Shown: piece after piece, positions 3,979-63,954 of the stretch
How the letters are laid out: each line of letters opens with the position of its first letter
Position numbering within the stretch: position 1 is the stretch's first letter
From: a virus
Lineage: Duplodnaviria; Heunggongvirae; Uroviricota; Caudoviricetes
DNA: 64,000 nucleotides
IMG/VR virus record: IMGVR_UViG_3300008114_000011
Strand: one strand, 5' to 3'
Notes under the pieces: model-generated
Databases searched by the model: none
Told to the model about the DNA's origin: nothing
The model's input: the letters and a program-made list of their open reading frames with translations, nothing else
Translations under genes and position numbers: made by a program

Positions 3979-4142
3979 AAATATTTAATAACCTATTATA
4001 CTTAATCGTCATATCTTTTTGGTTTTTTTGTATAATTTTTGTATCATTTATATATTTAATGACACCTAAAAAGTATAAAGATTCTCTTAGAAGAAAATTA
4101 AAGATTTTTATAAATGATTAAAAGAATTTTAATATATAACTA

Positions 4143-4403: not shown

Positions 4404-4419
4404 AAAATAAATAATGATT

Positions 4420-4692: not shown

Positions 4693-4697
4693 ATCAT

Positions 4698-4922: not shown

Positions 4923-5140
4923 AAGCAATCTGCATAAGAAAATCCCACCCTGGATACTGCAAATGGGACCTCACCCCAGGAAAGGCCTACGACGTGCTGG
5001 AACAGGGGAAAGACAACAACACCGAAGAGCCGATCTACCTAATACAGGACGACGAGGGAAACACATACTGGTACAGCAAGATCACGGTGATGCCGATAGA
5101 TGAATGGAGAGAGAAAAGGCTAAAAGAGATAGGAATATGA
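4919..5140 (+). CDS. ELGI-tail family small protein, GC-rich allele
   Basis: MKAICIRKSH...DEWREKRLKEIGI; hand count of first 120 nt gives about 51% G+C vs about 30% in neighbours. Confidence 0.7.
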   Translation: MKAICIRKSHPGYCKWDLTPGKAYDVLEQGKDNNTEEPIYLIQDDEGNTYWYSKITVMPIDEWREKRLKEIGI

Positions 5141-16003: not shown

Positions 16004-16216
16004 ATGAAAAAGTTAATTAAAGAATATGAGAAGCTCAATCCTGGGTGTAAGATTAAGTACATACCTGAAAATTTTGCTTCTATTGAAATTTATAATAGTG
16101 GTGGATTAATTGCTATATTAGAGCCATTTGAATTGAGAGTGGAAGTGGAAAGAATGGTGAAAAATAAAGCTGAAGTTCGTGATAAAAAACTTAGTGAGTT
16201 ACTTGGAGAAAATTAA
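16004..16216 (+). CDS. small protein with ELGI-type tail variant
   Basis: 70 aa; C-term EVRDKKLSELLGEN. Confidence 0.55.
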   Translation: MKKLIKEYEKLNPGCKIKYIPENFASIEIYNSGGLIAILEPFELRVEVERMVKNKAEVRDKKLSELLGEN

Positions 16217-16308
16217 AACTAACGGTTATGGAGATATAAAGATTAACAACATTATAGAAACTAATTGAAAAAATTATTATCTTTGATGTGTAAATTAAAA
16301 CCACCAGA

Positions 16309-16638
16309 ATGGCATCATCCAGAAAACGAAGACTTAAAATTAAAAAAGGTGAAACTCATAAGAGTATAGAAATTAAATATTGTAAGCCAGAAATATCTAT
16401 ACAACATACTCGTGAATATTCAAAGATATTTGTTGAATGGGAAGATAAAAACGAAAAATCAGAAGATCTACGTAGAGAAGGTAAATACCATATAGTGTCA
16501 TATACTTATAGAAATAAACAAGAGTTGGATGATAATATCCAAAAGATCTCCGACTTAAAGAATATATTCCCATATCTAAGTATAAAATCATCACTTATTA
16601 AGTATTTGAAAACTCTAAGACCATTATCATATGTTTAA
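16309..16638 (+). CDS. hypothetical basic protein
   Basis: N-term MASSRKRRLKIKKGE resembles 18100 (MSSKKRRQALRK) and 20609 (MASKKARKKLRPK). Confidence 0.5.
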   Translation: MASSRKRRLKIKKGETHKSIEIKYCKPEISIQHTREYSKIFVEWEDKNEKSEDLRREGKYHIVSYTYRNKQELDDNIQKISDLKNIFPYLSIKSSLIKYLKTLRPLSYV

Positions 16639-16870
16639 AAAGGGAGATATATTAATTGCTAAAACGAGCTCAATTTATAATAACCATAATAAATTGACTA
16701 TTGGTAAAGAATATGTAATAAAAAATACATATGGTGGTCTAAATATTTATGATGATACTTTAAAAGCTTGGTTCTTTTCTCCAGATGAATATGATATTCA
16801 TTACTATGGGAAATTCTTTTATACCAAAGAGGAGTTGAGAGATATGAGATTATCCACTTTACTTGAATAA
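16631..16870 (+). CDS. small protein with ELGI-type tail variant
   Basis: 79 aa; C-term EELRDMRLSTLLE. Confidence 0.55.
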   Translation: MFKKGDILIAKTSSIYNNHNKLTIGKEYVIKNTYGGLNIYDDTLKAWFFSPDEYDIHYYGKFFYTKEELRDMRLSTLLE

Positions 16871-16930
16871 AATTGATAATATTTTATTTATATATTTTTC
16901 TTTGAAAAGAATTTTGAAATGATAGATATT

Positions 16931-16968
16931 TCATTATTCTTCATCATTATTTTCTGGTATCATATTAC
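16931..16968. repeat. 38-nt exact repeat (partner 10911..10948), orphan gene-end fragment
   Basis: Identical to the 3' end of - strand gene 10914..11210, but here intergenic. Confidence 0.85.
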
Positions 16969-16987
16969 TATTAAACTCCAACCTGCT

Positions 16988-17560
16988 TTATACACATACT
17001 TGAAGAAGTGAACCTTTATTTAATAATACTACTAATTTACCATCAATATTTAACCAATTATTCATGATGGTTTCTTTACTCCATTCCCACGCCTCCTTCT
17101 TGTATATATTCAATAAAAAACCATATCTCTCAAAAAACGACCAGATTGAAGTGCTTACGTAAATTCGTCTATCTCTACTTTTATCATAAAAAATTATATT
17201 GTCACCTGGATTATACCTATAAAGAACACATCCAGGGTGATCCTTACTCTCAACTTTTTCCATATCAGAAAAGTTTTTATTTAACCAATCAATACATACA
17301 TTCTCTATTGGTTTATCAGTAACTATAATTCCTTTACTTGTTTTATGAGAGTAATATCCTTCCTCTTCTATCCATGATTTTAAATGGTTTATTTTATCTT
17401 CACTAGGTTCTTCACTAAATTCAAATAAACGAAACATAGATGTATCTCCGTACTTCTCATCAAAGGTAACCTCATCAACCTCTATTGGATCTAAAGCAGA
17501 TGTTACAATCCATTTAGGATCTTCTCCATCGAAGTTTTCAAATAATTTTAAGTATTTCAT
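16988..17560 (-). CDS. MKYLK-head family protein
   Basis: 190 aa; N-term MKYLKLFENFDGE. Confidence 0.6.
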   Translation of the reverse strand: MKYLKLFENFDGEDPKWIVTSALDPIEVDEVTFDEKYGDTSMFRLFEFSEEPSEDKINHLKSWIEEEGYYSHKTSKGIIVTDKPIENVCIDWLNKNFSDMEKVESKDHPGCVLYRYNPGDNIIFYDKSRDRRIYVSTSIWSFFERYGFLLNIYKKEAWEWSKETIMNNWLNIDGKLVVLLNKGSLLQVCV

Positions 17561-20086: not shown

Positions 20087-20251
20087 ATGAAAAAATTAAT
20101 TTATTCACCAGCCATTTCACTAATACTACATATTTTTATGTTTTATATGTTGTGGTTTTATTGGTCACTTCCAATGATTATAGTTTGGTCTATTTTTCTT
20201 GTAATTTACAATGAGAGAAGATACAATTGGAAAAAGTCCAGAAAATACTAA
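20087..20251 (+). CDS. possible 54-aa membrane protein (below cutoff)
   Basis: MKKLIYSPAISLILHIFMFYMLWFYWSLPMIIVWSIFLVIY...; stop codon lies inside the 26-bp palindrome. Confidence 0.4.
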   Translation: MKKLIYSPAISLILHIFMFYMLWFYWSLPMIIVWSIFLVIYNERRYNWKKSRKY

Positions 20252-20271
20252 AATCCGCACGTTTTTTAGTA
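20246..20271. repeat. 26-bp palindromic element, copy 1 (core TCCGCACGTT)
   Basis: TACTAAAATCCGCACGTTTTTTAGTA; 8-bp perfect outer arms. Confidence 0.9.
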
Positions 20272-20364
20272 TTTTACTACGTAAAAATCTAAACTAAGTT
20301 TAGTATACCTGAGCTTGTGAAATCCAGATAAAATGCTTATCTTTGTTAATAATAATTTTATTAT

Positions 20365-20598
20365 ATGACAAAGTCCGAAATATTCAAATCTCAATTTCCC
20401 GATTTTTGTGGAACTCTTGGTTTCTATACTGAAGATTGCCAAATGGTAAACTTCATCGATGTTGAATCTGATATAGTTGAATTTGCAACATTAGTACCTA
20501 TGAGTTGTTCTAAAACCAAAGCACATTCAATTACATTATCCGAACTACTTGATGAAATGCCGGATAATGATTTTGAAAAATTCCTTGAAATTTTTTAA
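20365..20598 (+). CDS. hypothetical acidic protein
   Basis: 77 aa ORF downstream of a promoter-like TATCTTTG. Confidence 0.5.
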   Translation: MTKSEIFKSQFPDFCGTLGFYTEDCQMVNFIDVESDIVEFATLVPMSCSKTKAHSITLSELLDEMPDNDFEKFLEIF

Positions 20599-20608
20599 AT
20601 TATAAGAT

Positions 20609-20965
20609 ATGGCATCTAAGAAAGCTAGAAAAAAGTTAAGACCCAAAGAAGATAAACAAAATTATCTAAAAGCTTATGTTTCATGGGACTTTGGGTTTAA
20701 ATCATTCAGAATATTAAATCGTGATAATTTTGATGTTATTTCAGAAAGAAAACTAATTAAAGATGGTAAACAATGCTGGTTTGATCTATCTAACGTTAAA
20801 GATGAAGTTGAAAGATATGCCACAGAAAGAGATTTATCTACATGGGGTTTAGGAGAATTATACCAATGTATCGATGATGAAGGGTTTAGTTATTCACATA
20901 AAGATCCTAACTTAGAAGGAGTTAAATCAAAGGCGAAACAAAAATCAATTATATTGATAGATTAA
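20609..20965 (+). CDS. hypothetical basic protein
   Basis: N-term MASKKARKKLRPKEDKQ. Confidence 0.5.
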   Translation: MASKKARKKLRPKEDKQNYLKAYVSWDFGFKSFRILNRDNFDVISERKLIKDGKQCWFDLSNVKDEVERYATERDLSTWGLGELYQCIDDEGFSYSHKDPNLEGVKSKAKQKSIILID

Positions 20966-20977
20966 AATATAATACAT

Positions 20978-21163
20978 ATGAAAGTAAGAAAAGGTGATAG
21001 TGTTAAGTTATTAAACGGCTTTAAAGAGACTATAAATGAAATTGATGTACATAAAGGTAAATTCAATATAAATGGTGAATATAATTATATGTCATTTATT
21101 ATTGCTGATATTATAGAATTAAATGGCGTAGATGTTAGATATAATACAAATTTGACTTTTTAA
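20978..21163 (+). CDS. hypothetical small protein
   Basis: 61 aa ORF. Confidence 0.45.
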   Translation: MKVRKGDSVKLLNGFKETINEIDVHKGKFNINGEYNYMSFIIADIIELNGVDVRYNTNLTF

Positions 21164-21174
21164 AAAAATAAACT

Positions 21175-21330
21175 ATGATAGCAATTATTCTTATACCAAT
21201 AATAATCACCAGTTTCCTTATCGGGAAATATACAGAGAGATTTCAATGGAATAAACTAATCAAATTAGGTAGAATTCCTAAACCAAATAACCCTAATCTA
21301 AATCATTCAGATTATTGGGCAAATAACTAG
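21175..21330 (+). CDS. possible 51-aa membrane protein (below cutoff)
   Basis: MIAIILIPIIITSFLIGKYTERF... Confidence 0.35.
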   Translation: MIAIILIPIIITSFLIGKYTERFQWNKLIKLGRIPKPNNPNLNHSDYWANN

Positions 21331-21432
21331 ACTAAACAAACTAAAACATAAATATATGGAATACTTAGCTTATACATTTTTTGGAATGGTTATATACATT
21401 CTTGCTTATTTACTATTAAAACCTGAGAAATA

Positions 21433-21657
21433 ATGAATTTAGCAGACCAAATGAAAGCTGATATTAACTTTAATAAGATAATATCACAACTACAAAGAGA
21501 ATTCTCTTCCGGTAAATCTCAAGTTCTTATTGATAGCAACCTTTTAGAGAATAACATACAACGCCTTAGAGACGAAGGCTTCCATGTTGATACTGATGGT
21601 TTCCAATATAATGGTGGTGCCTACGTTTCATTCAAGAAGAAAAATCAATGGATGTAA
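21433..21657 (+). CDS. hypothetical small protein
   Basis: 74 aa ORF. Confidence 0.5.
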   Translation: MNLADQMKADINFNKIISQLQREFSSGKSQVLIDSNLLENNIQRLRDEGFHVDTDGFQYNGGAYVSFKKKNQWM

Positions 21658-21664
21658 ATCAGAT

Positions 21665-21982
21665 ATGATTAAAAATCCAAAATTTACTCAGATTGGTGAA
21701 GAAGTTCATGATGATATAATTGAACTAATTCAGGATATTACTGTTTCTGGTATTCATTATTCTTCAAAGCCATATAGTAATTGTGAAATCAAAATAAAGA
21801 GTATTCTACTTACACTCGTATTTGGTAAATGGTCATATCTTATCAATTATGAAATAGGTGATAAAAATATGAATTTCTATACTTCTGAGAGACATAGTTC
21901 ATTAGATAATAAAATTGAAGAATATTTAGATAAACATATGACCCAAATAATAAGGGATGAGAAAATAAGAGAAATACTTTGA
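21665..21982 (+). CDS. protein with degenerate ELGI-type tail
   Basis: ATG 21665 preferred over overlapping upstream start; C-term QIIRDEKIREIL. Confidence 0.5.
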   Translation: MIKNPKFTQIGEEVHDDIIELIQDITVSGIHYSSKPYSNCEIKIKSILLTLVFGKWSYLINYEIGDKNMNFYTSERHSSLDNKIEEYLDKHMTQIIRDEKIREIL

Positions 21983-21984
21983 AA

Positions 21985-22410
21985 ATGGTCTTTACCATGT
22001 CAATGAAACAAAAAACAAACCAAATGATTAACACACGTATCTTCAATATAAAGTCATTTAAAGGGTTCACCTTAGGTAAAGAGTATCTTATATTAGATAA
22101 CTCACCAGGGACTAAGAAATCACACGAAATCATTGGCTCAAATGATCATGACTGGATAGCATTCCACTATCAATATGATGGATATGTAAGTCCATATGAG
22201 TATTTTGATTACCTATCTAAAAGGAACGCTATGCGTAAAAAGAAAATAGGCAAACAAAAGAATGAAAAGAAAGAAAGATTCTATATCATAGATGATTTTG
22301 GAAAAAGAAGATCATTCACAAGAAATGAATTAAATATGATATTCACTAATAATAGTGATGATATAACTTTAGAAATACGTAACGCTAAACTAAATACTTT
22401 AAATATATGA
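21985..22410 (+). CDS. protein with ELGI-type tail variant
   Basis: ATG 21985; C-term EIRNAKLNTLNI. Confidence 0.5.
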   Translation: MVFTMSMKQKTNQMINTRIFNIKSFKGFTLGKEYLILDNSPGTKKSHEIIGSNDHDWIAFHYQYDGYVSPYEYFDYLSKRNAMRKKKIGKQKNEKKERFYIIDDFGKRRSFTRNELNMIFTNNSDDITLEIRNAKLNTLNI

Positions 22411-22577
22411 TAGATTTATTAGAAATAATACTTATAGTAGGATTATTGGTATTCACATTTTTTCTTTTTACCACACTTTGGTTATTAATTAAATACCCAA
22501 AGTATGCAAATAAAATGATAAGTAAAATGATATGGGGTAAAGAGTGGGTTAAAAAGAATAAAAAACTAAATCCATAA
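22407..22577 (+). CDS. possible 56-aa membrane protein (below cutoff)
   Basis: ATGA-coupled; MIDLLEIILIVGLLVFTFFLFTTLWLLIKYPKY... Confidence 0.4.
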   Translation: MIDLLEIILIVGLLVFTFFLFTTLWLLIKYPKYANKMISKMIWGKEWVKKNKKLNP

Positions 22578-22736
22578 GAAGTTGTTTTTATGAAATAAAA
22601 ACCCTACTCACTTGTGAGAGTCATATAAAATGACTATCTTTATAATGTCAATGAGAACATCGAAGACGGGTCCGTATAACTCCAATACGTAGAGGGTAAA
22701 CTCCAACCTGCTTATATAAATAATAAAACAAATAAA

Positions 22737-22762
22737 TACTAAAAAACGTGCGGATTTTAGTA
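22737..22762. repeat. 26-bp palindromic element, copy 2 (inverted core)
   Basis: TACTAAAAAACGTGCGGATTTTAGTA, the exact reverse complement of copy 1. Confidence 0.9.
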
Positions 22763-22780
22763 TTTTGTCTCATTTTTATT

Positions 22781-22788
22781 TATATTTG
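22781..22788 (+). promoter_or_regulatory. -7 box TATATTTG coupled to palindrome copy 2
   Basis: ttatatttgtataaactaaa; same string follows copy 4 at 23981. Confidence 0.5.
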
Positions 22789-22834
22789 TATAAACTAAAT
22801 GTTATGGCTAAAACTAATACTAAATTAAATAGAA

Positions 22835-23041
22835 ATGGAAAAGTTTTTTAAAATACTAATAATAGTTTGTGCAATATTTATAGTTGTGAATAATTACCAA
22901 AATGGAATTGATAAAAATTACCCAATAATGCAATTAGGTGTAACATCTTTATGGATGTTGGTATCTTTTATTCTGTATAAAAGTATTAATAGTAAAGGTA
23001 AACTAAAAAGAAAACCTTTAAATTTTGAGGAAAAATACTAA
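22835..23041 (+). CDS. small membrane protein
   Basis: FFKILIIVCAIFIVV and LGVTSLWMLVSFILY hydrophobic segments; stop inside palindrome copy 3. Confidence 0.5.
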   Translation: MEKFFKILIIVCAIFIVVNNYQNGIDKNYPIMQLGVTSLWMLVSFILYKSINSKGKLKRKPLNFEEKY

Positions 23042-23061
23042 AAAACGTGCGGATTTTAGTA
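23036..23061. repeat. 26-bp palindromic element, copy 3 (inverted core)
   Basis: TACTAAAAAACGTGCGGATTTTAGTA. Confidence 0.9.
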
Positions 23062-23080
23062 TAATCTAAACAAAGTTTAG

Positions 23081-23088
23081 TATATTTG
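23081..23088 (+). promoter_or_regulatory. -7 box TATATTTG coupled to palindrome copy 3
   Basis: Preceded by CTAAAC-aaa-GTTTAG mini-palindrome, also seen at 20290 and 25445. Confidence 0.5.
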
Positions 23089-23107
23089 TTCTACAAAACA
23101 AGTTCCT

Positions 23108-23386
23108 ATGAAAACTACCGAAGAATATAAAATGGATACTTTCCGTATGTGGGAAGGAGACTGCCACCCAGCTATATACAAGAAAAATAAAAAAGGTGAA
23201 TGGGATTACCTATTCCTCGTCAGTAGCAAAGAAGAGGGACAGGCATACCTGGAAGACCACTCCACCATAAAGAGACGATACATTCAGGACCGCGTACTAA
23301 TCTACACCCTTTTCGTGATACCAGCGTCAGCTCTGTTGTTATGGTCAATAATAGTAGGTATATTGGCAGTAACCGGGAATATGTAA
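23108..23386 (+). CDS. small C-terminally membrane-anchored protein, GC-rich allele
   Basis: C-term LIYTLFVIPASALLLWSIIVGILAV; visibly GC-rich relative to flanks. Confidence 0.55.
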   Translation: MKTTEEYKMDTFRMWEGDCHPAIYKKNKKGEWDYLFLVSSKEEGQAYLEDHSTIKRRYIQDRVLIYTLFVIPASALLLWSIIVGILAVTGNM

Positions 23387-23421
23387 TCAAGATTTAATGT
23401 AGGTAAAATTATTTTATTAAA

Positions 23422-23715
23422 ATGAAAACACATTTGACTAACCCCAAGACAAATAAAACATTAGTCTTGGACCACAATATAGAACAGACTGTTTTTGATT
23501 CAATATTTAATGATTCAAAAGAATTGTTTTATAATAAACAAGAAGAAATTGAAGAAATATATGGTGTTTCTTTTGATTTATGTGATTTGAAAATTGATGG
23601 TGAATTATTATATGGTTATTTTATCAACGATTTAACTTCAGATGAAATTTTAGAAGAAATATTTAACGATTTAAATAAATTCATCATAGATAATATTGGA
23701 GAAGTAATAAACTAA
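23422..23715 (+). CDS. hypothetical acidic protein
   Basis: 97 aa; stops inside an out-of-frame ELGI junction remnant. Confidence 0.5.
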   Translation: MKTHLTNPKTNKTLVLDHNIEQTVFDSIFNDSKELFYNKQEEIEEIYGVSFDLCDLKIDGELLYGYFINDLTSDEILEEIFNDLNKFIIDNIGEVIN

Positions 23716-23731
23716 AAGAATTAGGAATATG
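23712..23731 (+). repeat. out-of-frame or non-coding copy of the ELGI junction
   Basis: ctaaaagaattaggaatATG encodes L-K-E-L-G-I in a frame closed upstream; supplies the ATG of 23729. Confidence 0.55.
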
Positions 23732-23932
23732 GACCAACAAATGAATATTATATGTATAGCTGAAGGTACTTACAAAATAACTAAAGGCAAGACCTACCAA
23801 GTAAACGCACATTCAACTCACCAATATTGGATCATAGATGATGAAGGTCATATGCAATTGATAGGTAAAGACTTTTTCAGAACACAACAAGAAATAAGAG
23901 AAGAGAAGTTAAATGAACTTGGAATAATCTAA
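23729..23932 (+). CDS. ELGI-tail family small protein
   Basis: 67 aa; NIICIAEG...QEIREEKLNELGII. Confidence 0.65.
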   Translation: MDQQMNIICIAEGTYKITKGKTYQVNAHSTHQYWIIDDEGHMQLIGKDFFRTQQEIREEKLNELGII

Positions 23933-23947
23933 ATTTTACTAATAAAA

Positions 23948-23973
23948 TACTAAAATCCGCACGTTTTTTAGTA
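23948..23973. repeat. 26-bp palindromic element, copy 4
   Basis: TACTAAAATCCGCACGTTTTTTAGTA. Confidence 0.9.
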
Positions 23974-23982
23974 TTTATTTCT

Positions 23983-23990
23983 TATATTTG
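23983..23990 (+). promoter_or_regulatory. -7 box TATATTTG coupled to palindrome copy 4
   Basis: cttatatttgtataaactaaa. Confidence 0.5.
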
Positions 23991-24012
23991 TATAAACTAA
24001 AAATAAACAACC

Positions 24013-24177
24013 ATGATAACCTTATTCAAAAAACTATTCAATAAAGATTGTAATCACAAGTGGGAACTTGTACAAAACGATAAAAAACTAAATATCAAAG
24101 TCCACCAATGTGACAATTGCAATAAAAGAAAATTAAATGTATCAACATCATTCGGTAATGAAGTAATTGAATTATAA
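24013..24177 (+). CDS. possible 54-aa Cys/His protein (below cutoff)
   Basis: MITLFKKLFNKDCNHKWELVQNDKKLNIKVHQCDNCNKRKL... Confidence 0.4.
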   Translation: MITLFKKLFNKDCNHKWELVQNDKKLNIKVHQCDNCNKRKLNVSTSFGNEVIEL

Positions 24178-24182
24178 TCTTA

Positions 24183-24250
24183 AAGGTTAGATACAAACCT
24201 AATCAGCGTCCATCTCCATAATCCAATAGGAGGCAAATATATCTAACCTT
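24183..24250. repeat. long hairpin, 11-bp perfect arms
   Basis: AAGGTTAGATA ... TATCTAACCTT. Confidence 0.8.
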
Positions 24251-24281
24251 CAATGAAACTAAGGCATTGAGCCAAGATGCT

Positions 24282-24420
24282 GTTAGTGTGCGTTATTTAT
24301 TAGTAGAATGGCTTGAGGGCAACCCTATTATCGAATGTTTAGAGTATTGGAGTAATCTACCTAAATACGAAGGTTTTAAAATAGAACACACTATTTGTCG
24401 TATTACTAATGCACACTAAC
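24282..24420. repeat. long hairpin, 10-bp perfect outer arms plus inner arms
   Basis: GTTAGTGTGC...ATTAGTA // TACTAAT GCACACTAAC. Confidence 0.75.
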
Positions 24421-24509
24421 GTATCGGGGCTTTGCGTAGTAGTCCTTAGTAGAAACTTAAAATTAACCACGACACTTGATAGGGCTATTACACAAAGCCC
24501 TTGTTATGT
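24417..24509 (+). repeat. attC-like junction element (TAAC ... GTTATGT)
   Basis: TAACgtatcg-GGGCTTTGCGTAGTAGTCC ... GGGCTATTACACAAAGCCC-tt-GTTATGT; 19-nt arms with 3 mismatches. Confidence 0.55.
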
Positions 24510-24527
24510 GCCGTTAAATTTCACAAA

Positions 24528-24731
24528 ATGAGATACGAAGAAAAAATTATCGAACACACAGAAGAAGAAACAGACTTCTTACCACTCAAAGAAGCAATAG
24601 TGAATATCGAATTTTCTCAAGGTGACTTGATTGAAATGAGAGATATTTTAAGACAATTTAAGCCTAATTTATGGGCAAAAGGATTGTTGTCAGATATAGA
24701 AGCCACACTCGAAAAGGTGTCGGTGTATTAA
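24528..24731 (+). CDS. hypothetical small acidic protein (cassette ORF)
   Basis: ATG 24528; flanked on both sides by TAAC/GTTA hairpin elements. Confidence 0.5.
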   Translation: MRYEEKIIEHTEEETDFLPLKEAIVNIEFSQGDLIEMRDILRQFKPNLWAKGLLSDIEATLEKVSVY

Positions 24732-24813
24732 TGGCCCGTTTTGCGGTTTTGTGTTAGGCTACGAAGCCTTGGCATTGAGCGGTCGAGCAGCTTGCACAAA
24801 ACCGCTGTTATAC
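24729..24813 (+). repeat. attC-like junction element (TAAT ... GTTATAC)
   Basis: Stop TAA is part of TAATGG; arms GCGGTTTTGTG / CACAAAACCGC (11 bp perfect); then t-GTTATAC. Confidence 0.55.
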
Positions 24814-24871
24814 GCTGGCACGGGTAATTTAGTAGGAACTTAATTTGAAACACAAATAAAAATCAAAAGCA

Positions 24872-25174
24872 ATGGCAACAGTAATTTATGAAATACCAAA
24901 CTCCGTAAAGGAAATGTTTGAACAAGGCGAAAATAGTTATCGCATTATTGACTATTCAATACAGGAAATGGATAACATCCAAAGTATGCAACATTTCCTT
25001 GACTGTATAGGTGCAACAACGGATAATATCGAAACAGATGATGGAACGCAAGTAGTAGTAATTCATCCCGATTTTGACCACAAACTTGTAATTGATAGTG
25101 GTGGGTTGGGTGATTTTTATTCTCACGGTTATGACGTAACTCTCTATTCGGAAACGGTCAGTAGTGCTTGTTAA
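24872..25174 (+). CDS. hypothetical acidic protein
   Basis: 100 aa ORF. Confidence 0.5.
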   Translation: MATVIYEIPNSVKEMFEQGENSYRIIDYSIQEMDNIQSMQHFLDCIGATTDNIETDDGTQVVVIHPDFDHKLVIDSGGLGDFYSHGYDVTLYSETVSSAC

Positions 25175-25188
25175 ATATAAAAAACATC

Positions 25189-25398
25189 ATGAAAGATTAC
25201 AAGAAAGGTGATGAATTCACATCTAAAAACTCAGGGACTATTTCAACAATAATAGAGATTGCATCGGAAGATGTCCTAAACTGGTACGGATTAGAAGGTC
25301 CAGCGTTCTGGATAAATGAGAATGGAAGCTCTCAATTAAGACTTTGTACCATAGAAGGCCTCAAAGAACTATTCATTATACCCGAAGAGAAAAAATAG
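25189..25398 (+). CDS. hypothetical small protein
   Basis: ATG 25189 (MKDYKKGDEF...) preferred over TTG 25168. Confidence 0.5.
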   Translation: MKDYKKGDEFTSKNSGTISTIIEIASEDVLNWYGLEGPAFWINENGSSQLRLCTIEGLKELFIIPEEKK

Positions 25399-25474
25399 GT
25401 TTCTGACTTCGTGGAAAAATAGTGAACCTTCGTTAACTCAGGTACTAAACTTCGTTTAGAGTTTCTAAAGAAAC

Positions 25475-25500
25475 TACTAAAATCCGTGCGGATTTTAGTA
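25475..25500. repeat. 26-bp palindromic element, copy 5 (fully symmetric)
   Basis: TACTAAAATCCG-TG-CGGATTTTAGTA, 12-bp perfect arms. Confidence 0.9.
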
Positions 25501-25584
25501 TCATTAGCTTGTGATATACAGATAAAATCATTATCTTTATACTCACAGAGTGAGAGTATAAAATACTAAAACAAAATAAGAGAT

Positions 25585-26004
25585 ATGAACCTTGACACTA
25601 TAATAAAATCACAAATAATCGGATTAGAAATCGGAATAATAAACGTTATCAAAACAACCGAGTTTAACGTACACGCAATCGCAAACGAATTATCCGATAT
25701 ATTAGGTAAAGAAAATATCCAAATATTCAAAGTTGGTACCCACACAGGTATATCAATACCAGAAATCGTTAAACAATTCGATAACTTCGACTACTCTAAA
25801 CCAATCATAATCGTTACAAACAAAGACGCAATCTATAAACATATCATACCAAGAAACGGTAAAGTAATTCAATCTAAATGCCCAAAAACAGGCTTCCTAA
25901 TCCTAAACGATGTTAAATGGAAATTCACACGTTTCCAATCTACTTTCGAAGGAACAATAACTCAACTAAGAAGAGATTACCAATTAGAAACACTAATAAA
26001 TTAA
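25585..26004 (+). CDS. hypothetical protein with degenerate tail
   Basis: 139 aa; C-term QLRRDYQLETLIN. Confidence 0.55.
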   Translation: MNLDTIIKSQIIGLEIGIINVIKTTEFNVHAIANELSDILGKENIQIFKVGTHTGISIPEIVKQFDNFDYSKPIIIVTNKDAIYKHIIPRNGKVIQSKCPKTGFLILNDVKWKFTRFQSTFEGTITQLRRDYQLETLIN

Positions 26005-26014
26005 AAAATAGGTT

Positions 26015-26084
26015 AGGTGGGTAGCTCAACTGGAAAGAGCCTCTCATTAAGAGAGAGATTAAGGTTCGAATCCTGTCCCTTCTG
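26015..26084 (+). tRNA. tRNA-like element (type I size, loop ATTAAGA, possible UAA anticodon) with weak T stem
   Basis: D arm GCTC-AACTGGAAA-GAGC. Anticodon arm CTCTC-ATTAAGA-GAGAG. GGTTCGAATCC T-loop with only 3 T-stem pairs. Acceptor AGGTGGG/CCCTTCT has 1 mismatch. The helix extends 7 more bp (26008..26014 with 26084..26090). Confidence 0.45.
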
Positions 26085-26108
26085 ACCTATACTAAACTTC
26101 AGAGAAGA

Positions 26109-26134
26109 TACTAAAATCCGCACGTTTTTTAGTA
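26109..26134. repeat. 26-bp palindromic element, copy 6 (arms extended to 14 bp)
   Basis: agaagaTACTAAAATCCGCACGTTTTTTAGTAtcttct. Confidence 0.9.
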
Positions 26135-26348
26135 TCTTCTTTAGTTCTGATTGATCCGAGCCGCCCGAAATCACCGATTAAAATTGTTAAAAACCAGGTA
26201 AAAACCCAGTGGATTTTTTACTGAAAAATGACCCTCTGGAAACGTAAGCAGGTCAAGGCTTTCCGAGAGGTGTGTATATACAAATTGGTGCTGAAAATAA
26301 GGCTACTGGTAGAGAAAATGAAATGGCGATAGAGTTTACACAAAAATA

Positions 26349-26374
26349 TACTAAAAAACGACCGGATTTTAGTA
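26349..26374. repeat. 26-bp palindromic element, copy 7 (variant, inverted core)
   Basis: TACTAAAAAACGACCGGATTTTAGTA. Confidence 0.8.
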
Positions 26375-26389
26375 TGTTGAAAAATAAGG

Positions 26390-26415
26390 TACTAAAAAGT
26401 GTGCGGAATTTAGTA
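26390..26415. repeat. 26-bp palindromic element, copy 8 (degenerate)
   Basis: TACTAAAAAGTGTGCGGAATTTAGTA. Confidence 0.7.
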
Positions 26416-26571
26416 TTAACTAAAAGTGAAGTATGACTTTGAAATCGTTCCATTCAAATTAAATCAAAACTAATTCAAATTCTATAAACGTAAAATTGTT
26501 CACATTACACTATAATTTATTTTTATTATTCGTATAGAGTTCTTATATTTATTAAATCAAAACGAAAATAT

Positions 26572-29969: not shown

Positions 29970-30770
29970 ATGAAAAAGACAAATTATTACGAAATTTGTA
30001 ATCAAAAATTGAAGTATTTAAACTATTCAGATAGGACTATCAAGTCCTATCTTTATTATATTAATCAATTTTTAGAAAATACTAAAATACCACCAACCAG
30101 ATTAACAGCAACAGATTTCCAACAATATCTCAATAATTACAATTTTACCTCCACCTCACAACAAAATCAAGTCATAAACTCAATAAGATTCCTATACAAA
30201 GAATCACTTAATAAAAAATATGATAAGGTTGATTTTAAAAGACCTAGATCTGAAAAGAAACTACCAAAAGTAATTGATGGCGATTATATCAAATCTAAAC
30301 TTTCTAAAATAGAAAACCTTAAGCATAAAACTATACTTACTTTAACCTATTCAGTTGGTTTAAGAGTTTCCGAAATAATAAATCTTAAAATAGAAGATAT
30401 TGACTCCAAAAGAATGATTATTCATATTAAAAATGCTAAAGGTAAAAAAGATAGAATTGTACCACTTTCAGAAAACGTACAAAATCTAATAAAAATATAT
30501 TCAGAAAAATATACACCAAAAGAATATCTTTTTAATGGTCAATCCACAAACAAATATTCAATACAATCCTGTCAAAATATCTATAAAAAATATATTGATG
30601 AAAATTCATCTATACATACCCTCAGACACTCAGCCTTTACCAACCTCTTAGAAAATGGAACAGATCTAAGAATAATACAGAAAATAGCAGGTCACTCATC
30701 CACCAAAACAACAGAGATATATACACACGTTTCTAATCAACTTTTAAATAAAGTTAATCTACCAATTTAA
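29970..30770 (+). CDS. tyrosine recombinase, IntI/XerC/XerD-like (short, 266 aa)
   Basis: N-terminal SAM-like pattern LKYLNYSDRTIKSYLYYINQF; GLRVSEIINLK; AKGKKDRIVPLS; HTLRHSAFTNLLENGTDLRIIQKIAGHSSTKTTEIYTHV (R..HxxR..Y catalytic pattern). Confidence 0.85.
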   Translation: MKKTNYYEICNQKLKYLNYSDRTIKSYLYYINQFLENTKIPPTRLTATDFQQYLNNYNFTSTSQQNQVINSIRFLYKESLNKKYDKVDFKRPRSEKKLPKVIDGDYIKSKLSKIENLKHKTILTLTYSVGLRVSEIINLKIEDIDSKRMIIHIKNAKGKKDRIVPLSENVQNLIKIYSEKYTPKEYLFNGQSTNKYSIQSCQNIYKKYIDENSSIHTLRHSAFTNLLENGTDLRIIQKIAGHSSTKTTEIYTHVSNQLLNKVNLPI

Positions 30771-30799
30771 CTTTTCTTTGAAAAGAATTATTAAATGAT

Positions 30800-30807
30800 T
30801 ATATTTG
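30800..30807 (+). promoter_or_regulatory. -7 box TATATTTG
   Basis: TAnnTTTG 21 nt upstream of ATG 30828. Confidence 0.4.
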
Positions 30808-30827
30808 TATATAATCACACACATAAT

Positions 30828-31256
30828 ATGATAAAGTTTGTTAAGAAGTCGAGTTCGGGGTCTACAAAAGAGGTGGATTTAATATTATCTGATGTTAGTA
30901 ATTGTAAATCATTAGCATCTTCTATCTTATTAAGAAAATATTTAATGGAGATGGATGTGGATTATATAGAGAAGATGGATTTGATTAATAAACGTATTGA
31001 GTTTAGTAGAAGTTATTTAGAGAGTGTTTTATCTCGTGATGGTGATATTAAGTGTACTTATTGTGGTAAGGGAGATTTGGTTATTGAGTATGATGGGATG
31101 CGTGTCAAAGAAAGTATAAAGGCTACGATTGATCATATCGTTCCTGTATCAAGAGGAGGAGGTAGGTTTGATGTTAGTAATATAACTCCATGTTGTGGTG
31201 AGTGTAATGGTAAGAAGGGTAATAAGTCATTAGATGATTTTCTAAAGTCGATTTAA
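30828..31256 (+). CDS. HNH endonuclease
   Basis: CTYCGKG...ATIDHIVPVSRGGGRFDVSNITPCCGECNGKKGNK. Confidence 0.8.
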   Translation: MIKFVKKSSSGSTKEVDLILSDVSNCKSLASSILLRKYLMEMDVDYIEKMDLINKRIEFSRSYLESVLSRDGDIKCTYCGKGDLVIEYDGMRVKESIKATIDHIVPVSRGGGRFDVSNITPCCGECNGKKGNKSLDDFLKSI

Positions 31257-31257: not shown

Positions 31258-31650
31258 ATGAATAAGATCACATTTTGTTTATCGGATAAGGCTGAATCAT
31301 TTTCATTTGATTTTGATTACTTTACTTTATTGGATGATGGTTCCATAACTTATAGTGGTGTAAATAGACATACTGGTTTTAGCACTAACGAGTTTTATGA
31401 TATTGAGAATATTTTTAAACAAAATGAGAGGTTTGATTTAATTGTATTGAGATGTTTTAGAATTAGAATAAATACTGTAAATAGGGTTATACATGGAGAG
31501 ATTACAAGTTTTGAGAGTTCTGGTCTTAGTAAGGTAAATTTAACTATTAAACCTAAGTTTATTTGGGATCTCGATCTTGGTGATGAGTTTTACAAACATT
31601 TACCAGCAATCAGAAGAGAAATAAAATTAAATAATATTATAGGAATATGA
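31258..31650 (+). CDS. protein with ELGI-type tail variant
   Basis: 130 aa; C-term AIRREIKLNNIIGI. Confidence 0.55.
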   Translation: MNKITFCLSDKAESFSFDFDYFTLLDDGSITYSGVNRHTGFSTNEFYDIENIFKQNERFDLIVLRCFRIRINTVNRVIHGEITSFESSGLSKVNLTIKPKFIWDLDLGDEFYKHLPAIRREIKLNNIIGI

Positions 31651-31946
31651 CATTAGAAGAATTAAGAGATCGTCCTTTAGAAGAAAAGGTAGATTATATA
31701 TGTGACTACGTTATCTCTCATGGATTGGGACCAAAGTTTAGAAATATTTCTTTCCGTGGAGTAATTGTTGAATATAAGGATATATTTGATGCTATTAGAG
31801 AAGTTAATAGGAGTTTAAGACCAGCTGAATATCATACCGATTGGTATCGATTAGGTGCTAATGTATTTAAAAATGAATTAGTTAAGGGAGTTTTAAATCA
31901 TGAATTGATATTCCCACGTATAAAAGAAGAAATATCAAAGTTATGA
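31647..31946 (+). CDS. hypothetical protein, tandem paralog A
   Basis: MTLEELRDRPLEEKVDYI...VKGVLNHELIFPRIKEEISKL. Confidence 0.6.
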   Translation: MTLEELRDRPLEEKVDYICDYVISHGLGPKFRNISFRGVIVEYKDIFDAIREVNRSLRPAEYHTDWYRLGANVFKNELVKGVLNHELIFPRIKEEISKL

Positions 31947-32242
31947 CATTAGAAGAGTTAAGAGAAAAGTCTTTAGAAGAAAAGGTGAATTATATTTTTG
32001 ATTATGTTACGTCTTATGCTCGTGAAAGAGAAGATAGGTTTAAAGATATACCTTTACGTGTATTAATTGATGAGTATGATGATATAATTGATGTTTTCAG
32101 AGAAGTTAATTATGGTCTAAGAAGATTTTGGAGTCAACCCGGATATCGAGCAAGTATTGAATATAAGAGAGAAGTAGTTAAGGGAGTTTTAAATCATGAA
32201 TTGTTATTCCCACGTATAAAAGAAGAAATATCAAAGTTATGA
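31943..32242 (+). CDS. hypothetical protein, tandem paralog B
   Basis: MTLEELREKSLEEKVNYI...VKGVLNHELLFPRIKEEISKL; same length (99 aa). Confidence 0.6.
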   Translation: MTLEELREKSLEEKVNYIFDYVTSYAREREDRFKDIPLRVLIDEYDDIIDVFREVNYGLRRFWSQPGYRASIEYKREVVKGVLNHELLFPRIKEEISKL

Positions 32243-63375: not shown

Positions 63376-63954
63376 TTATTGAGAGTTTTTCTTTGTTAGG
63401 TTTTCAATATCTTTTAAAATTGATTGTTGCCAAGGAATATCACCACCTATATAAGGTATAACAACGTCCAGGTCTTCGTTTATAGGTAATTCAGTAATAT
63501 CATCATTATCTAAGTTGAATATATTTAATATATTTTCTTTATATTTCTCCTTAAACTCGTTTATATTATCACCTGTATATTCATAAATAGGATAAGCATC
63601 AATTCTTGAGTATCCAAGAGATTTTAAATCTTTATGAATAAATATCTTATCCAACTTAAATGCTGATCTTTTAACATTATACTTTTGTTTAATCTCTTCC
63701 GCGAGTTTCTTAGTTCTTGTATCATAATCATCATCTAACTTAATAACACAACTATCATTTTCTATTTCTCTTAATAAAACTTGAGAAGCCCACTCACCAA
63801 TATTTAAATTTAATTCACTACAATACTTTTTAATAGTAGAATGAGTTTTACCAGGTATTGTAATCGTTTTTGGTTTATTTTTTTCTCTCAATTCTTTTTC
63901 CATTTGCTTAACCTTCTTCTTCATTTCGATTAAGTCTTCTTCTGTAAAGTCCAT
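63376..63954 (-). CDS. hypothetical protein, possible ribbon-helix-helix DNA-binding N-terminal region
   Basis: TITIPGKTHSTIKKYCSELNLNIGEWASQVLLREI has a strand-helix-helix look; tentative. Confidence 0.45.
   Translation of the reverse strand: MDFTEEDLIEMKKKVKQMEKELREKNKPKTITIPGKTHSTIKKYCSELNLNIGEWASQVLLREIENDSCVIKLDDDYDTRTKKLAEEIKQKYNVKRSAFKLDKIFIHKDLKSLGYSRIDAYPIYEYTGDNINEFKEKYKENILNIFNLDNDDITELPINEDLDVVIPYIGGDIPWQQSILKDIENLTKKNSQ

Follow-up and report, generated by a model that had tools for sequence, protein, structure and literature searches.

A near-palindromic repeat at the ends of small transcription units in a plastic island of an uncultured freshwater jumbo phage

Eight copies of H1 in one small-ORF island

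The window analyzed here is a 64,000-nucleotide stretch of DNA from an uncultured freshwater jumbo phage with a Bacteroidota-type host. Its kinship to T4 is distant, as seen in clamp loader matches and in T4 baseplate domains on a sister contig. A single 6-kb plastic island of small ORFs holds all eight copies of a 26-base near-palindrome, TACTAAAATCCGCACGTTTTTTAGTA, which we call H1. The coordinates and orientations given for these copies in the initial annotation were all confirmed, and dinucleotide shuffles yield 0 matches. A pattern restricted to the arms, TACTAAAA-N10-TTTTAGTA, recovers exactly these eight, where 0.34 would be expected by chance. H1 copies alternate with Bacteroidota-type -7 boxes and delimit six consecutive mini transcription units (Table 1). 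Between 20.0 and 26.7 kb there are six successive intergenic -7 boxes with an H1 before each, and every H1 lies at the end of a unit.

The -7 boxes reported after copies 2, 3 and 4 are present, as are the string TTATATTTGTATAAACTAAA common to the positions after copies 2 and 4 and all three sets of CTAAAC-N3-GTTTAG mini-palindromes; the block at 25445 shows a 32-nt indel polymorphism relative to L134 and L165. The proposed overlap with stop codons holds only in part. Only copy 3 clearly supplies a stop codon, that of the gene at 22835..23041. The reading frame said to end in "KY-stop" at 20249 (20087..20251) is not called as a gene in public assemblies and lies partly over the residual start of a 145-aa gene, of which the variant L123 has an intact version. 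Copy 6 closes the unit ending in a tRNA gene and has no promoter behind it; AGAAGA/TCTTCT flanks lengthen its stem to 14 bp (-17.2 kcal/mol).

Table 1. Features of the H1 island (positions in the window)
Feature	Coordinates	Strand	Context
H1 copy 1, canonical	20246..20271	+	after 86-aa gene; -7 box at 20338, 66 nt downstream
Mini-palindrome CTAAAC-TAA-GTTTAG	20289..20303	.	family D14
Full Bacteroidota-type promoter, TTG + 20 nt + TATCTTTG	20312..20345	+	drives 8-gene unit 20365-22577; repeat family D5
Promoter TTG...TATCTTTA (at 22635) and ~90 nt of conserved noncoding sequence, ATCGAAGACGGG...	22609..22736	+	runs to copy 2
H1 copy 2, canonical, reverse	22737..22762	-	ends small noncoding unit; 18 nt to -7 box 22781
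Cassette: promoter, 68-aa gene, copy 3	22763..23061	+	present here and in L123/L165; absent from L152/L190
-7 box TATATTTG	22781..22788	+	68-aa gene cassette
H1 copy 3	23036..23061	-	TAA stop of gene 22835..23041; 19 nt to -7 box 23081
Mini-palindrome CTAAAC-AAA-GTTTAG	23066..23080	.	
-7 box TATATTTG	23081..23088	+	unit 23108-23932; overlaps right arm of mini-palindrome
H1 copy 4	23948..23973	+	9 nt ahead of -7 box 23983
Cassette: promoter 23983, five small genes, GC-rich noncoding stretches, copy 5	23974..25500	+	
Mini-palindromes CTAAAC-TTC-GTTTAG and GTTTCTAAAGAAAC	25445..25474	.	
H1 copy 5, perfectly symmetric	25475..25500	.	full -33/-7 promoter 25506-25539 next
Full promoter TTG...TATCTTTA	25506..25539	+	unit of 139-aa gene and tRNA-Leu
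tRNA-Leu(UAA)	26015..26084	+	last gene of unit closed by copy 6
H1 copy 6	26109..26134	+	directly 3' of tRNA-Leu; first site of four-site noncoding module
Noncoding module core	26135..26348	.	between H1 sites; H1-like degenerate site at ~26198-26223
H1 copy 7, GGTC-centre variant	26349..26374	-	2 mismatches; conserved third module site
H1 copy 8, variant TACTAAAAAGTGTGCGGAATTTAGTA	26390..26415	-	3 mismatches; conserved fourth module site

Two early readings of individual copies had to be revised. Copy 5, first noted as a fully symmetric version, is a derived allele of this genome only; its orthologues in L123, L134, L160 and L165 have the ordinary asymmetric form. Copies 7 and 8, described as degenerate, are not decayed. 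They are position-specific variants kept in a noncoding module of about 300 bp (26109-26415) that occurs in many relatives and carries four such variants, always in the same order; two of them are 114-116 nt apart, and copy 8, as in relatives, begins 15 nt past copy 7. An invariant palindrome, TGTATATACA (26273-26282), lies within the module core. The unit that runs to copy 2 is a candidate small RNA unit and displays a compensatory hairpin variant (CGTAT/ATACG versus AGTGT/ACACT). Some relatives carry unrelated hairpins, such as AGTCACTTAACGTGACT, in place of H1 after this unit, which points to a structural role at the 3' end. In the neighboring hairpin modules, changes in one arm are compensated in the other and the loops vary freely.

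The real H1 unit is 28 bp long (A-TACT...AGTA-T), with an A preceding it in 109 of 140 contexts and a T following it in 114 of 140. Its left flanks are A-rich (59%) and its right flanks T-rich (56%), compared with a background of about 35%, and the flanks are complementary over at least 5 bp in 14 of 115 contexts versus 5.2 +/- 2.1 in shuffles. The core hairpin is weak, at -4.2 to -4.9 kcal/mol, and its stem includes a single G-C pair. Ordinary terminator-like hairpins of the window reach -13 to -17 kcal/mol, are GC-rich and are each unique in sequence. Of the H1 copies, the symmetric copy 5 alone passes a standard terminator scan.

Distribution, spacing and rearrangements in relatives

Allowing as many as 5 mismatches reveals no further H1 copy in the window, and there is none in the adjoining genome 9.7 kb upstream and 8.9 kb downstream of it (about 18.6 kb). 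The H1-free remainder exceeds 76 kb, and a stretch of at least 82 kb thus has its copies in a single 6-kb cluster. A search of 185,579 representative bacterial and archaeal genomes found no H1 save one diverged match, and therefore it is not a host site.

In related phages, the same 26-mer recurs with its asymmetric centre, exactly so in 54 of 126 unbiased unique contexts. This centre is the commonest state; the symmetric form, which stabilizes the hairpin, appears once in the 126. Essentially all classified contexts are intergenic. H1 shows no preferred orientation in tandem contexts (37:29), where a stop codon falls inside it in 8 cases, or toward the promoter side (36 versus 31). At orthologous sites the centre can be inverted with the sequence otherwise kept, and the L123 orthologue of copy 1 has its centre in the opposite orientation. 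The exact 26-mer is retained where the neighboring protein is only 68-92% identical between phages, and a second centre family, ACTGTTGCTT, has the arms alone in common with H1. Mosaicism is rampant, with blocks 90-98% identical between otherwise distant contigs.

Where a -7 box lies nearby in relatives, H1 occupies three spacing classes, 8-10, 18-21 and 28-32 bp upstream. These classes are about 10 bp apart, and of the gaps between them 11-15 bp holds no case and 22-27 bp a single one (Rayleigh p ~1e-14, relatedness of contexts ignored), and one orthologous promoter shows all three. In about half of the H1 contexts, the 45 nt to either side contain no -7 box. Upstream hairpins are lacking at most of the window's other promoters, so a terminator ahead of every promoter is no general need of the phage.

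Two cassettes are precisely present or absent among relatives. L152 and L190 lack the cassette between copies 2 and 3 and keep a single H1 at the junction; L155 lacks that between copies 4 and 5, and a lone H1 there connects the sequences flanking these two copies. Extra H1 copies in L123 flank a replaced module, and frequently only one of the two sides of a replacement bears H1. The indels of adjacent hairpin modules fall at microhomologies. The early suggestion of mobile modules bounded by the palindrome accordingly stands as far as gain, loss and replacement are concerned. It does not extend to inversion, as no gene-scale inversion between inverted H1 copies was seen among the relatives compared. 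An empty site with both flanks intact was not found either. H1 is present at 4 of 16 distinct tight rearrangement junctions and absent from the other 12, and most gene shuffling in these phages proceeds without it.

Connector, operator or recombination site

PeSLs of T4-type phages are stem-loops that lie just upstream of host-type early promoters, before small ORFan genes, and favor hyperplastic regions; both termination and the formation of mini-circles have been shown for them experimentally (PMC2839356, PMC4122927). Our preferred explanation, tentative and somewhat short of probable, is that H1 is a PeSL-like connector, a terminator or insulator coupled to a promoter, and doubles as a cassette boundary prone to recombination. 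Each mini unit of the island would run from a host-type promoter, with its -7 (and -33) element, to an H1, whose A-tract, 8-bp AT stem, 10-nt centre and T-tract could act in either direction. By stopping or attenuating read-through, H1 would allow each unit to be expressed autonomously. Because the copies are identical over 26-28 bp and form hairpins, they would be favored spots for short-homology recombination and template switching. Such events could add or remove cassettes with one copy left behind, cause small indels of neighboring hairpin modules and invert the asymmetric centre. We infer, then, that the H1 hairpin terminates or insulates transcription and that recombination takes place within H1. 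In favor of the connector are the unit map, the closing of a unit by copy 6, the A-left/T-right flanks and their excess complementarity, the intergenic placement in either orientation, the unrelated hairpins that stand in for H1, the compensated arms of neighboring hairpin modules, the two cassette polymorphisms, the extra copies in L123, the confinement to a plastic island and the distant kinship to T4. Several observations fit poorly: a pure hairpin role does not require a conserved asymmetric centre, the spacing classes hint at coupling on one face of the DNA that a terminator does not need, and the weak core hairpin, the terminator scan and the 12 H1-free junctions all count against the connector.

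Like PeSLs, H1 is repeated within a genome, common to relatives and concentrated in a plastic region. Comparisons of close relatives place both at junctions of insertions, deletions and replacements, and in both a single element remains once the cassette between a tandem pair is excised. They differ in that the H1 promoter is of the Bacteroidota -33/-7 type (TTG...TAnnTTTG) rather than sigma-70, and in that the H1 stem is AT-rich and weak whereas PeSL stems follow G(n)...C(n). In addition, the 10-nt H1 centre is conserved, asymmetric and flips between orthologous sites, and for roughly half of the copies the nearest promoter is more than 45 nt away. Finally, H1 lies at only a quarter of the junctions examined.

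The main alternative, which we consider less likely, is that H1 is an operator, at which a phage DNA-binding protein, recognizing duplex or cruciform H1, would repress or activate the island promoters as a regulon. The four-site module at 26109-26415 would then be a high-occupancy control region, consistent with its retention of four variants in fixed order. An inverted centre would be neutral for a protein bound to duplex DNA and not for an RNA signal, and the dyad symmetry and orientation neutrality of H1 agree with this. The persistence of the exact 26-mer beside diverged proteins also favors an operator, although frequent mosaic exchange weakens any argument from deep conservation. The three spacing classes, seen even at one orthologous promoter, suit a bound protein too, but may come from promoter geometry, if H1 is directly followed by a -33 element or by 8-10 nt of T-tract. 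Similarly, H1 is restricted to a subset of promoters and is not a host site, yet the contexts that have no -7 box and the position of copy 6 after a tRNA gene are hard to reconcile with promoter control. The same promoter occurs in 12 configurations lacking H1, so its activity does not depend on H1. A simple homodimer leaves the asymmetry of the conserved state unexplained, and the A-left/T-right flanks with their excess complementarity, like a second centre family sharing only the arms, are unexpected for an operator. An HU/IHF-family gene about 8 kb beyond the window in the same genome encodes a candidate binder, by analogy with TF1 of SPO1. The protein proposed at the outset (63376..63954) has no recognizable domain, the structure model of the conserved 139-aa neighbor is unusable (pLDDT 55), and no binding protein was found.

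It is improbable that H1 is the site of a dedicated enzyme that captures, excises or flips cassettes. Its length and geometry fit a tyrosine-recombinase core of 11+6+11, ATACTAAAATC|CGCACG|TTTTTTAGTAT, a serine-invertase hix-like site of 12+2+12, or a single-stranded hairpin of the REP/RAYT or integron attC kind, in which hairpin mismatches are conserved as they are here. The asymmetric centre, conserved in both orientations, and the two cassettes, which behave like products of precise single-site excision or integration, also fit, and 3.5 kb downstream (29970-30770) lies the gene of a 266-aa tyrosine recombinase. However, this gene is absent beside the H1 clusters of L129 and L140 and has no link to H1 in relatives, and no serine recombinase or Y1 transposase was seen in the sequence examined, by a crude search with approximate queries and in precomputed Pfam lists covering 15.6-36 kb. 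No relative has a gene segment inverted between inverted copies or an empty site with intact flanks, many replacements have a one-sided H1, and 12 of 16 junctions have none. Moreover, the cassettes have their own promoters, unlike integron cassettes, and the copies are confined to one cluster, unlike REP elements. We doubt just as strongly that H1 is a functionless selfish or neutral repeat, spread by template switching and cassette hitch-hiking and kept uniform by exchange, as the mosaicism, the single dominant centre with its tail of decayed variants, the microhomology indels and the lone cluster would allow, since its consistent placement at unit ends, fixed promoter distances, absence from gene interiors, conserved module variants and structured flanks speak against it.

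H1 among known repeats

REP/BIME elements of enterobacteria and pseudomonads are, like H1, palindromes 20-40 bp long that are imperfect and conserve their mismatches. Both lie strictly outside genes, often just past stop codons, occur in both orientations and cluster with small modules, and their proposed roles overlap: transcript 3' ends, sites for proteins (IHF, gyrase) and recombination hot spots. REPs, however, number hundreds of copies genome-wide on chromosomes, in contrast to one 6-kb cluster in a phage; H1 has no GT[AG]G head, and no RAYT-type transposase was found in the sequence examined. Integron attC sites are likewise imperfect palindromes with conserved unpaired bases that bound small single-gene cassettes, presence or absence of which leaves one site, and a tyrosine recombinase lies near H1 in the window. 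Yet H1 lacks a GTTRRRY core and an attI/Pc arrangement, its cassettes have their own promoters, its sites lie in either orientation, and relatives do not keep the recombinase nearby.

The stoperators of cluster A mycobacteriophages, which are thought to control transcription through a phage protein, are also short, conserved intergenic repeats near stop and start codons. They are 13 bp long, asymmetric, strictly oriented to transcription and spread over the whole genome, whereas H1 is a quasi-palindrome of 26-28 bp, without orientation bias and limited to one island. Bidirectional intrinsic terminators share with H1 an A-tract, hairpin and T-tract between units, workable from either strand, but the H1 stem has a single G-C pair, its centre is 10 nt long and one sequence is reused many times. 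At some sites where units were gained, lost or swapped, H1 recurs in relatives, as PeSLs do in T4-type phages.

H1 copies at the ends of transcription units

The initial annotation had described eight copies of a 26-bp near-palindrome, here called H1, and exact matching, shuffling and an arms-only scan confirmed all eight at their positions (see table). No H1 match arose in the dinucleotide-shuffled window, and the arms-only pattern TACTAAAA-N10-TTTTAGTA returned the same eight sites against 0.34 expected, clustered and all at unit ends. A ninth copy is absent from the 64-kb window when up to five mismatches are allowed, and H1 is absent from 9.7 kb upstream and 8.9 kb downstream (18.6 kb of flanks, retrieved via flanking proteins). 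All eight copies fall among small ORFs in a single 6.2-kb cluster, the only one in at least 82 kb. The promoter strings and CTAAAC-N3-GTTTAG mini-palindromes described alongside them were likewise found.

Between 20.0 and 26.7 kb every gene lies on the plus strand, and the order alternates: H1, promoter, genes, H1, promoter, genes. H1 precedes six of the seven intergenic -7 boxes (TAnnTTTG promoter elements) in this interval, and each copy marks the end of a transcription unit. Most strong -7 boxes elsewhere in the window lack a hairpin in the 75 nt before them, and the ordinary terminator-like hairpins of the window are GC-rich and each unique in sequence.

Features of the window and of one contig from the same genome
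Feature	Position	Strand	Description
tRNA	12126-12215		90 nt per Rfam (40 bits), unreported by ARAGORN; insertion or intron possible; -7 box at 11855
H1 copy 1	20246		exact TACTAAAATCCGCACGTTTTTTAGTA
Unit 1	20365-22577	+	eight genes
Small noncoding unit	22609-22736		promoter-equipped, ~90 nt; same as Unit 2
Unit 2		+	promoter and ~90 nt noncoding, closes at copy 2
H1 copy 2	22737		reverse complement of TACTAAAATCCGCACGTTTTTTAGTA
Unit 3		+	one 68-aa gene, stop codon within copy 3
H1 copy 3	23036		reverse complement of TACTAAAATCCGCACGTTTTTTAGTA
Unit 4		+	three genes, closes at copy 4
H1 copy 4	23948		exact TACTAAAATCCGCACGTTTTTTAGTA
GC-rich noncoding stretches	24178-24510, 24730-24850		long predicted hairpins
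Unit 5		+	1.5 kb, closes at copy 5
H1 copy 5	25475		wholly symmetric form
Unit 6		+	139-aa gene and tRNA-Leu, closes at copy 6
H1 copy 6	26109		exact TACTAAAATCCGCACGTTTTTTAGTA
Last module	26109-26415		noncoding, contains copies 6-8
H1 copies 7 and 8	26349, 26390		variants
Tyrosine recombinase	29970-31256	+	266 aa (29970-30770), then HNH endonuclease
Tandem ORF copies	31646-32242		two copies, ~300 bp, 75% identity, 3' of the HNH endonuclease
Putative translation initiation factor 3 homologue	58500-59033	+	177 aa, IF3_N and IF3_C domains (precomputed Pfam list)
Intein with LAGLIDADG domain	59137-61158	-	spread over two neighboring ORFs
HU/IHF-family protein	L197 1954-2226		PF00216, HU-HIG; ~8 kb past window end

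Two kinds of noncoding DNA accompany the copies. The last module is a conserved ~300-bp region with four H1-type palindromes in fixed order, every position keeping its own conserved variant. Homologues (for example L129 8836-9190, L150 960-1300, L137, L135, L164, L170, L172 and L192) lie between genes that vary among phages. The module contains an invariant palindrome, TGTATATACA (26273-26282), and a conserved ATAG(A/G)(G/A)TT block, and its sites 2 and 3 are separated by 114-116 nt in ~10 divergent loci. Its global fold pairs only inverted H1 copies, and it has no Rfam match, RNAalifold consensus structure or conserved ORF; a small minus-strand ORF across copies 7 and 8 (26253..26453) is not a gene, since its translations are unlike between the window and L129. 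It might serve as a control region or an origin, or it might encode an unusual RNA. The small noncoding unit that ends at copy 2 (…GTCAATGAG…ATCGAAGACGGG…) has homologues in more than 20 loci, with three copies in L137 and two in L162. Its hairpin, CGTAT-AACTCCA-ATACG, has a fully compensated variant, AGTGT-AACACCA-ACACT, and a 9-nt variable tail precedes CTTATAT; H1 or another hairpin usually comes after the unit. It has no Rfam match and is a candidate phage small RNA family.

The two GC-rich stretches between copies 4 and 5, within the otherwise AT-rich island, have a fold z of about -3.5 across 24178-24860 and no Rfam match; 24236-25171 is missing from the variant contig L123. Rfam matched nothing but the tRNAs, even at E<=1 across 22.5-26.7 kb.

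The window itself has 25-34% G+C and is densely filled with small ORFs. It encodes a clamp-loader-like protein with ~1300 matches, mainly in T4-like phages, together with a NUDIX hydrolase, PRPP synthase, NAPRTase, homing endonucleases, an intein and a protein with a type-IX-secretion sorting domain, and a sister contig links the region to T4-baseplate-domain genes. The closest DNA-level relatives of one protein are uncultured phages of 460-640 kb, and a homologue of a window protein lies on a 629-kb scaffold; INPHARED held no near-identical phage. TAnnTTTG boxes, sometimes with TTG ~20 nt upstream, precede many genes window-wide, and such elements are established as promoters of Bacteroidota. 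Because of this gene content, these relatives and this promoter type, we regard the window as a stretch of an uncultured jumbo phage from freshwater, distantly T4-like, with a Bacteroidota-type host. Two public contigs match the window identically for 8-13 kb before an abrupt switch, L121 to bacterial-type genes (1-5100; H+-pyrophosphatase, PorP/SprF, BlaI-like) ahead of window position 20709 and L120 to T4-baseplate-domain genes (13077-17012) beyond 28661. These switches are assembly chimeras or real structural variants, with H1 at neither breakpoint.

H1 in related phages and cassette exchange

Searching with the 139-aa protein recovered identical contigs, the variant L123 (95-99%) and remoter loci whose protein identity is 92, 81, 68 and 56%. 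Of these remoter loci, the first three carry the exact 26-mer, and the 56% relative has one diverged copy. Scanning metagenome contigs added 59 stretches, mainly lake-derived, and the combined scans gave 225 H1 instances in 141 unique contexts (82 exact). Because the first metagenome scan had fixed part of the H1 centre, we repeated the census with arms-only detection and dropped sole anchor copies, leaving 126 unique contexts. The canonical centre occurs in 54 of these, alongside a tail of centre variants and a second centre family, ACTGTTGCTT, with nine members, while the symmetric form is represented once, by the window copy. Since the asymmetric centre (TC...TT, one arm bearing A4 and the other T6) is the commonest and the symmetric form was seen once, we conclude that asymmetry is the normal state of H1. 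A second palindrome family with H1 arms and another centre, TACTAAAAACTGTTGCTTTTTTAGTA, is found in relatives (for example L123 5015, L143 3899, L178 4958/5293, L164 and L170) and not in the window, in intergenic contexts like those of H1. The motif was not found in IMG/VR, where a loose arms-only pattern gave single chance matches with unrelated centres. A host-derived site was rejected, as 185,579 representative bacterial and archaeal genomes yielded one diverged match.

Orthologous sites differ in the orientation of the centre. Three alleles of the copy-5 locus, all delimited by shared TACTAAA...TTTAGTA ends, consist of H1(+) alone (L134, L160, L165), a 32-nt block of two mini-hairpins with H1(-) (L123), and the 32-nt block with symmetric H1 (window). 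Copy 1 is (+) in the window and L165/L166 and (-) in L123, and site 3 of the noncoding module reads (-) in the window but (+) in L129, its architecture unchanged. These opposite orientations show that the H1 centre inverts at orthologous sites, probably because its inverted arms recombine or allow template switching. Inversion of this kind has been described for hairpin loops in chloroplast spacers. Additionally, a 33-nt block (two mini-hairpins, TTTAGTA end) follows copies 2 and 4 in L123 and is missing from the window. Other small hairpin modules around H1 (GTTTCTTTAGAAAC, CTAAAC-N3-GTTTAG, AGTCAC-N-GTGACT and CTTTTC-N3-GAAAAG) show compensatory arm changes, and their loops vary or flip. Among the loci compared, no empty site joins both flanks without H1, and a MITE-like insertion with TA duplication was rejected on that ground.

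The H1 region is strongly mosaic among relatives. L152/L190 lack the 299-bp cassette that lies between copies 2 and 3 and comprises a promoter, the 68-aa gene and H1; one H1 remains there. L155 lacks the 1.5 kb from copy 4 to copy 5, and a single H1 connects copy 4's left flank to copy 5's right flank. In L123, a two-gene, GC-richer module replaces five window genes, and three H1-type copies bound and interrupt it. One gene of the module that replaces 21171-22634 (L123 4574-4918, with H1-type copies at the borders) is far GC-richer than the phage, which suggests that it was acquired recently from elsewhere. The proposal that modules are gained, lost or inverted at H1 fits the two clean cassettes and the H1-flanked replacements, but no gene segment was found inverted in any relative. 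Moreover, when the window was compared with all loci, H1 stood at only 4 of 16 distinct tight junctions (non-colinear abutments of two window-homologous blocks), with one more having H1 on the window side only. Indels also fall at plain gene boundaries without H1 (13937 to 14862, 15125 to 15996, 20604 to 20971 and 24236 to 25171). From its presence at some junctions and the many H1-free indels, we conclude that H1 appears to be used, yet is dispensable, for shuffling; enrichment over other intergenic gaps is not demonstrated.

Placement, hairpin strength and promoter spacing

The intergenic or stop-overlapping placement first reported was largely borne out: H1 is intergenic across the relatives' contexts, "inside ORF" cases being spurious ORFs in noncoding DNA, and of the window copies only copy 3 clearly holds a stop, that of the 68-aa gene. 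In tandem contexts (n=66), its orientation relative to transcription is 37:29, and a TAA within H1 is the upstream gene's stop in eight. The T-rich side points towards the nearest -7 box 36 times, and the opposite side 31 times. Convergent-gene contexts, which might have served as a pure-terminator test, were mainly artefacts of spurious ORFs in noncoding DNA, and apparent divergent contexts were mainly due to the small noncoding unit in between.

Flanking sequence is rich in A to the left of H1 and in T to the right, with A preceding H1 in 109 of 140 contexts, T following it in 114, and a T-run beside it in 79. Flank complementarity of at least 5 bp occurs in 14 contexts, compared to 5.2 +/- 2.1 in re-paired controls, and several flank stem extensions are sequence-specific and 6-12 bp long. 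The canonical stem has 8 bp with a single G-C pair, and its core folds only weakly (-4.2 and -4.9 kcal/mol), reaching -7.5 to -17 kcal/mol with flanks. A standard terminator scan passes only the symmetric copy 5.

The coupling of H1 to promoters suggested by the initial annotation stood in part. Beyond the island boxes, H1 lies 8-32 nt upstream of a -7 box in 55 unique contexts among relatives, and the distance from its end falls into three classes (22 contexts at 8-10 nt, 15 at 18-21 and 18 at 28-32), with none at 11-15 nt and one at 22-27 nt. A 10-bp period gives a vector strength of 0.69 and a Rayleigh p of ~1e-14, the latter uncorrected for kinship among contexts. However, in 70 contexts, about half, there is no -7 box within 45 nt. 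At the promoter of the small noncoding unit, H1 lies at a distance of 9, 18, 18, 20, 29, 29, 30 or 32 nt, and it is missing in 12 further configurations. Matches to sigma-70-type promoters were not enriched (60 versus 57.8 expected).

H1 compared with known elements and its possible roles

H1 lacks features that define REP elements, integron attC sites, stoperators and intrinsic terminators of the canonical type. REP/BIME elements are dispersed over extragenic space in hundreds of copies, with a RAYT (Y1 transposase) and a GT[AG]G head, whereas H1 forms a single cluster in at least 82 kb and has no such head. Integrons have adjacent intI, attI and Pc, and promoterless, co-oriented cassettes whose attC sites have a GTTRRRY core; in contrast, H1 cassettes have their own promoters, and the sites occur in both orientations without this core. 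Stoperators keep a fixed orientation to transcription, unlike H1 at 37:29, and intrinsic terminators combine a G+C-rich stem with a T-run, where H1 has one G-C pair. Literature searches turned up nothing relevant on such elements in Bacteroidota phages.

The closest likeness in architecture and distribution is to the promoter-early stem-loops (PeSLs) of T4-type phages, and H1 appears to work like them. PeSLs are transcription-terminating stem-loops just upstream of early promoters in hyperplastic regions, and their recombination deletes or inserts ORFan cassettes and makes mini-circles (PMC2839356, PMC4122927). Similarly, the H1 stem-loop lies directly upstream of a host-type promoter and small gene (six of seven boxes; 55 contexts) and is concentrated in a plastic small-ORF region. 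Its A/T-tract flanks and unit-end placement resemble a terminator, but the core reaches only -4 to -5 kcal/mol; it lies at two clean cassettes and at replacements, yet at few of the tight junctions (4/16). PeSL promoters are close to the sigma-70 consensus, whereas those at H1 are TTG/TAnnTTTG, reflecting the host lineage. H1 also differs in its AT-rich stem, its conserved, invertible asymmetric centre, its promoterless copies and its four-site module. We tentatively favor H1 as a PeSL-like connector, that is, a hairpin terminator/insulator, a role that falls just short of probable. We prefer it because it also explains the promoterless copies and the flanks. In its favor are the unit map, the A/T tracts beside H1, the stem extension behind the tRNA, and the fact that in some relatives unrelated hairpins take the place of H1 after the small noncoding unit.

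Weighed line by line, a hairpin terminator/insulator and an operator are roughly balanced. Overall, we regard a putative operator, a DNA site recognized by a protein, as possible but rather unlikely. It fits the weak stem better than a simple terminator does, and better explains why the stabilizing symmetric form is rare, why the asymmetric centre is conserved, why spacing falls into three classes, and why H1 is confined to one island with its four-site module; dyad symmetry and ~10-bp spacing classes are compatible with a dimeric protein. However, none of the candidate proteins checked could be tied to H1. The HU/IHF-family protein of L197, from the same genome, is a candidate for binding palindromes or hairpins with AT flanks, with no link to H1 found, and the 139-aa neighbor was set aside because its predicted structure was unusable (mean pLDDT 54.9).

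A bolder reading, in which H1 is the site of a dedicated DNA-acting phage factor, is likewise rather unlikely. This putative factor could be an island-wide regulator, for example the phage's HU/IHF-like protein, that would turn all the shuffled accessory cassettes of the island on or off through phase-locked H1 sites, with the four-site module as control hub. Alternatively, a hairpin-specific recombination system would turn the island into a viral platform for capturing cassettes, much like an integron.

A dedicated recombination or mobility system acting on H1 is improbable. The geometry fits dif- or hix-like sites and excision-like polymorphisms exist, but no linked enzyme, inverted gene segment in any relative or empty site was found; the crossover point within H1 cannot be placed because the copies are identical. 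The tyrosine recombinase, 3.5 kb away, was rejected as a partner, as it is missing near the H1 clusters of L129 and L140; the 109 bp shared in L140/L189 covers only an upstream region, and neither that place nor L129 has an integrase. In all DNA examined, a crude tblastn search with Hin, IS608 TnpA and phage HU-like queries returned the HU gene alone, the Hin and TnpA queries being approximate sequences. Neither this search nor the precomputed Pfam lists revealed a Y1-transposase-like ORF in that DNA. A function-less spreading repeat is similarly improbable. Frequent mosaic exchange between these phages makes H1 identity across distant genomes weaker evidence of selection than it first seems.

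If H1 is indeed a PeSL-like connector, it would extend the idea that regulatory connectors double as recombination joints for swapping ready-to-express cassettes. That idea has so far been based on T4-like coliphages and vibriophages, and its recurrence in an uncultured freshwater giant-phage clade with Bacteroidota promoters would hint that large phage genomes are generally designed in this way. Whether such elements are hairpins or protein sites is a question that the PeSL literature left open; it is raised here by the asymmetry and conservation of the centre and by the classes of spacing, and H1 would offer a way to test mere hairpins against protein-recognized joints. As a 26-bp handle, it would also serve to locate the clade's accessory-gene islands in metagenomes and to define their transcription units without culture.
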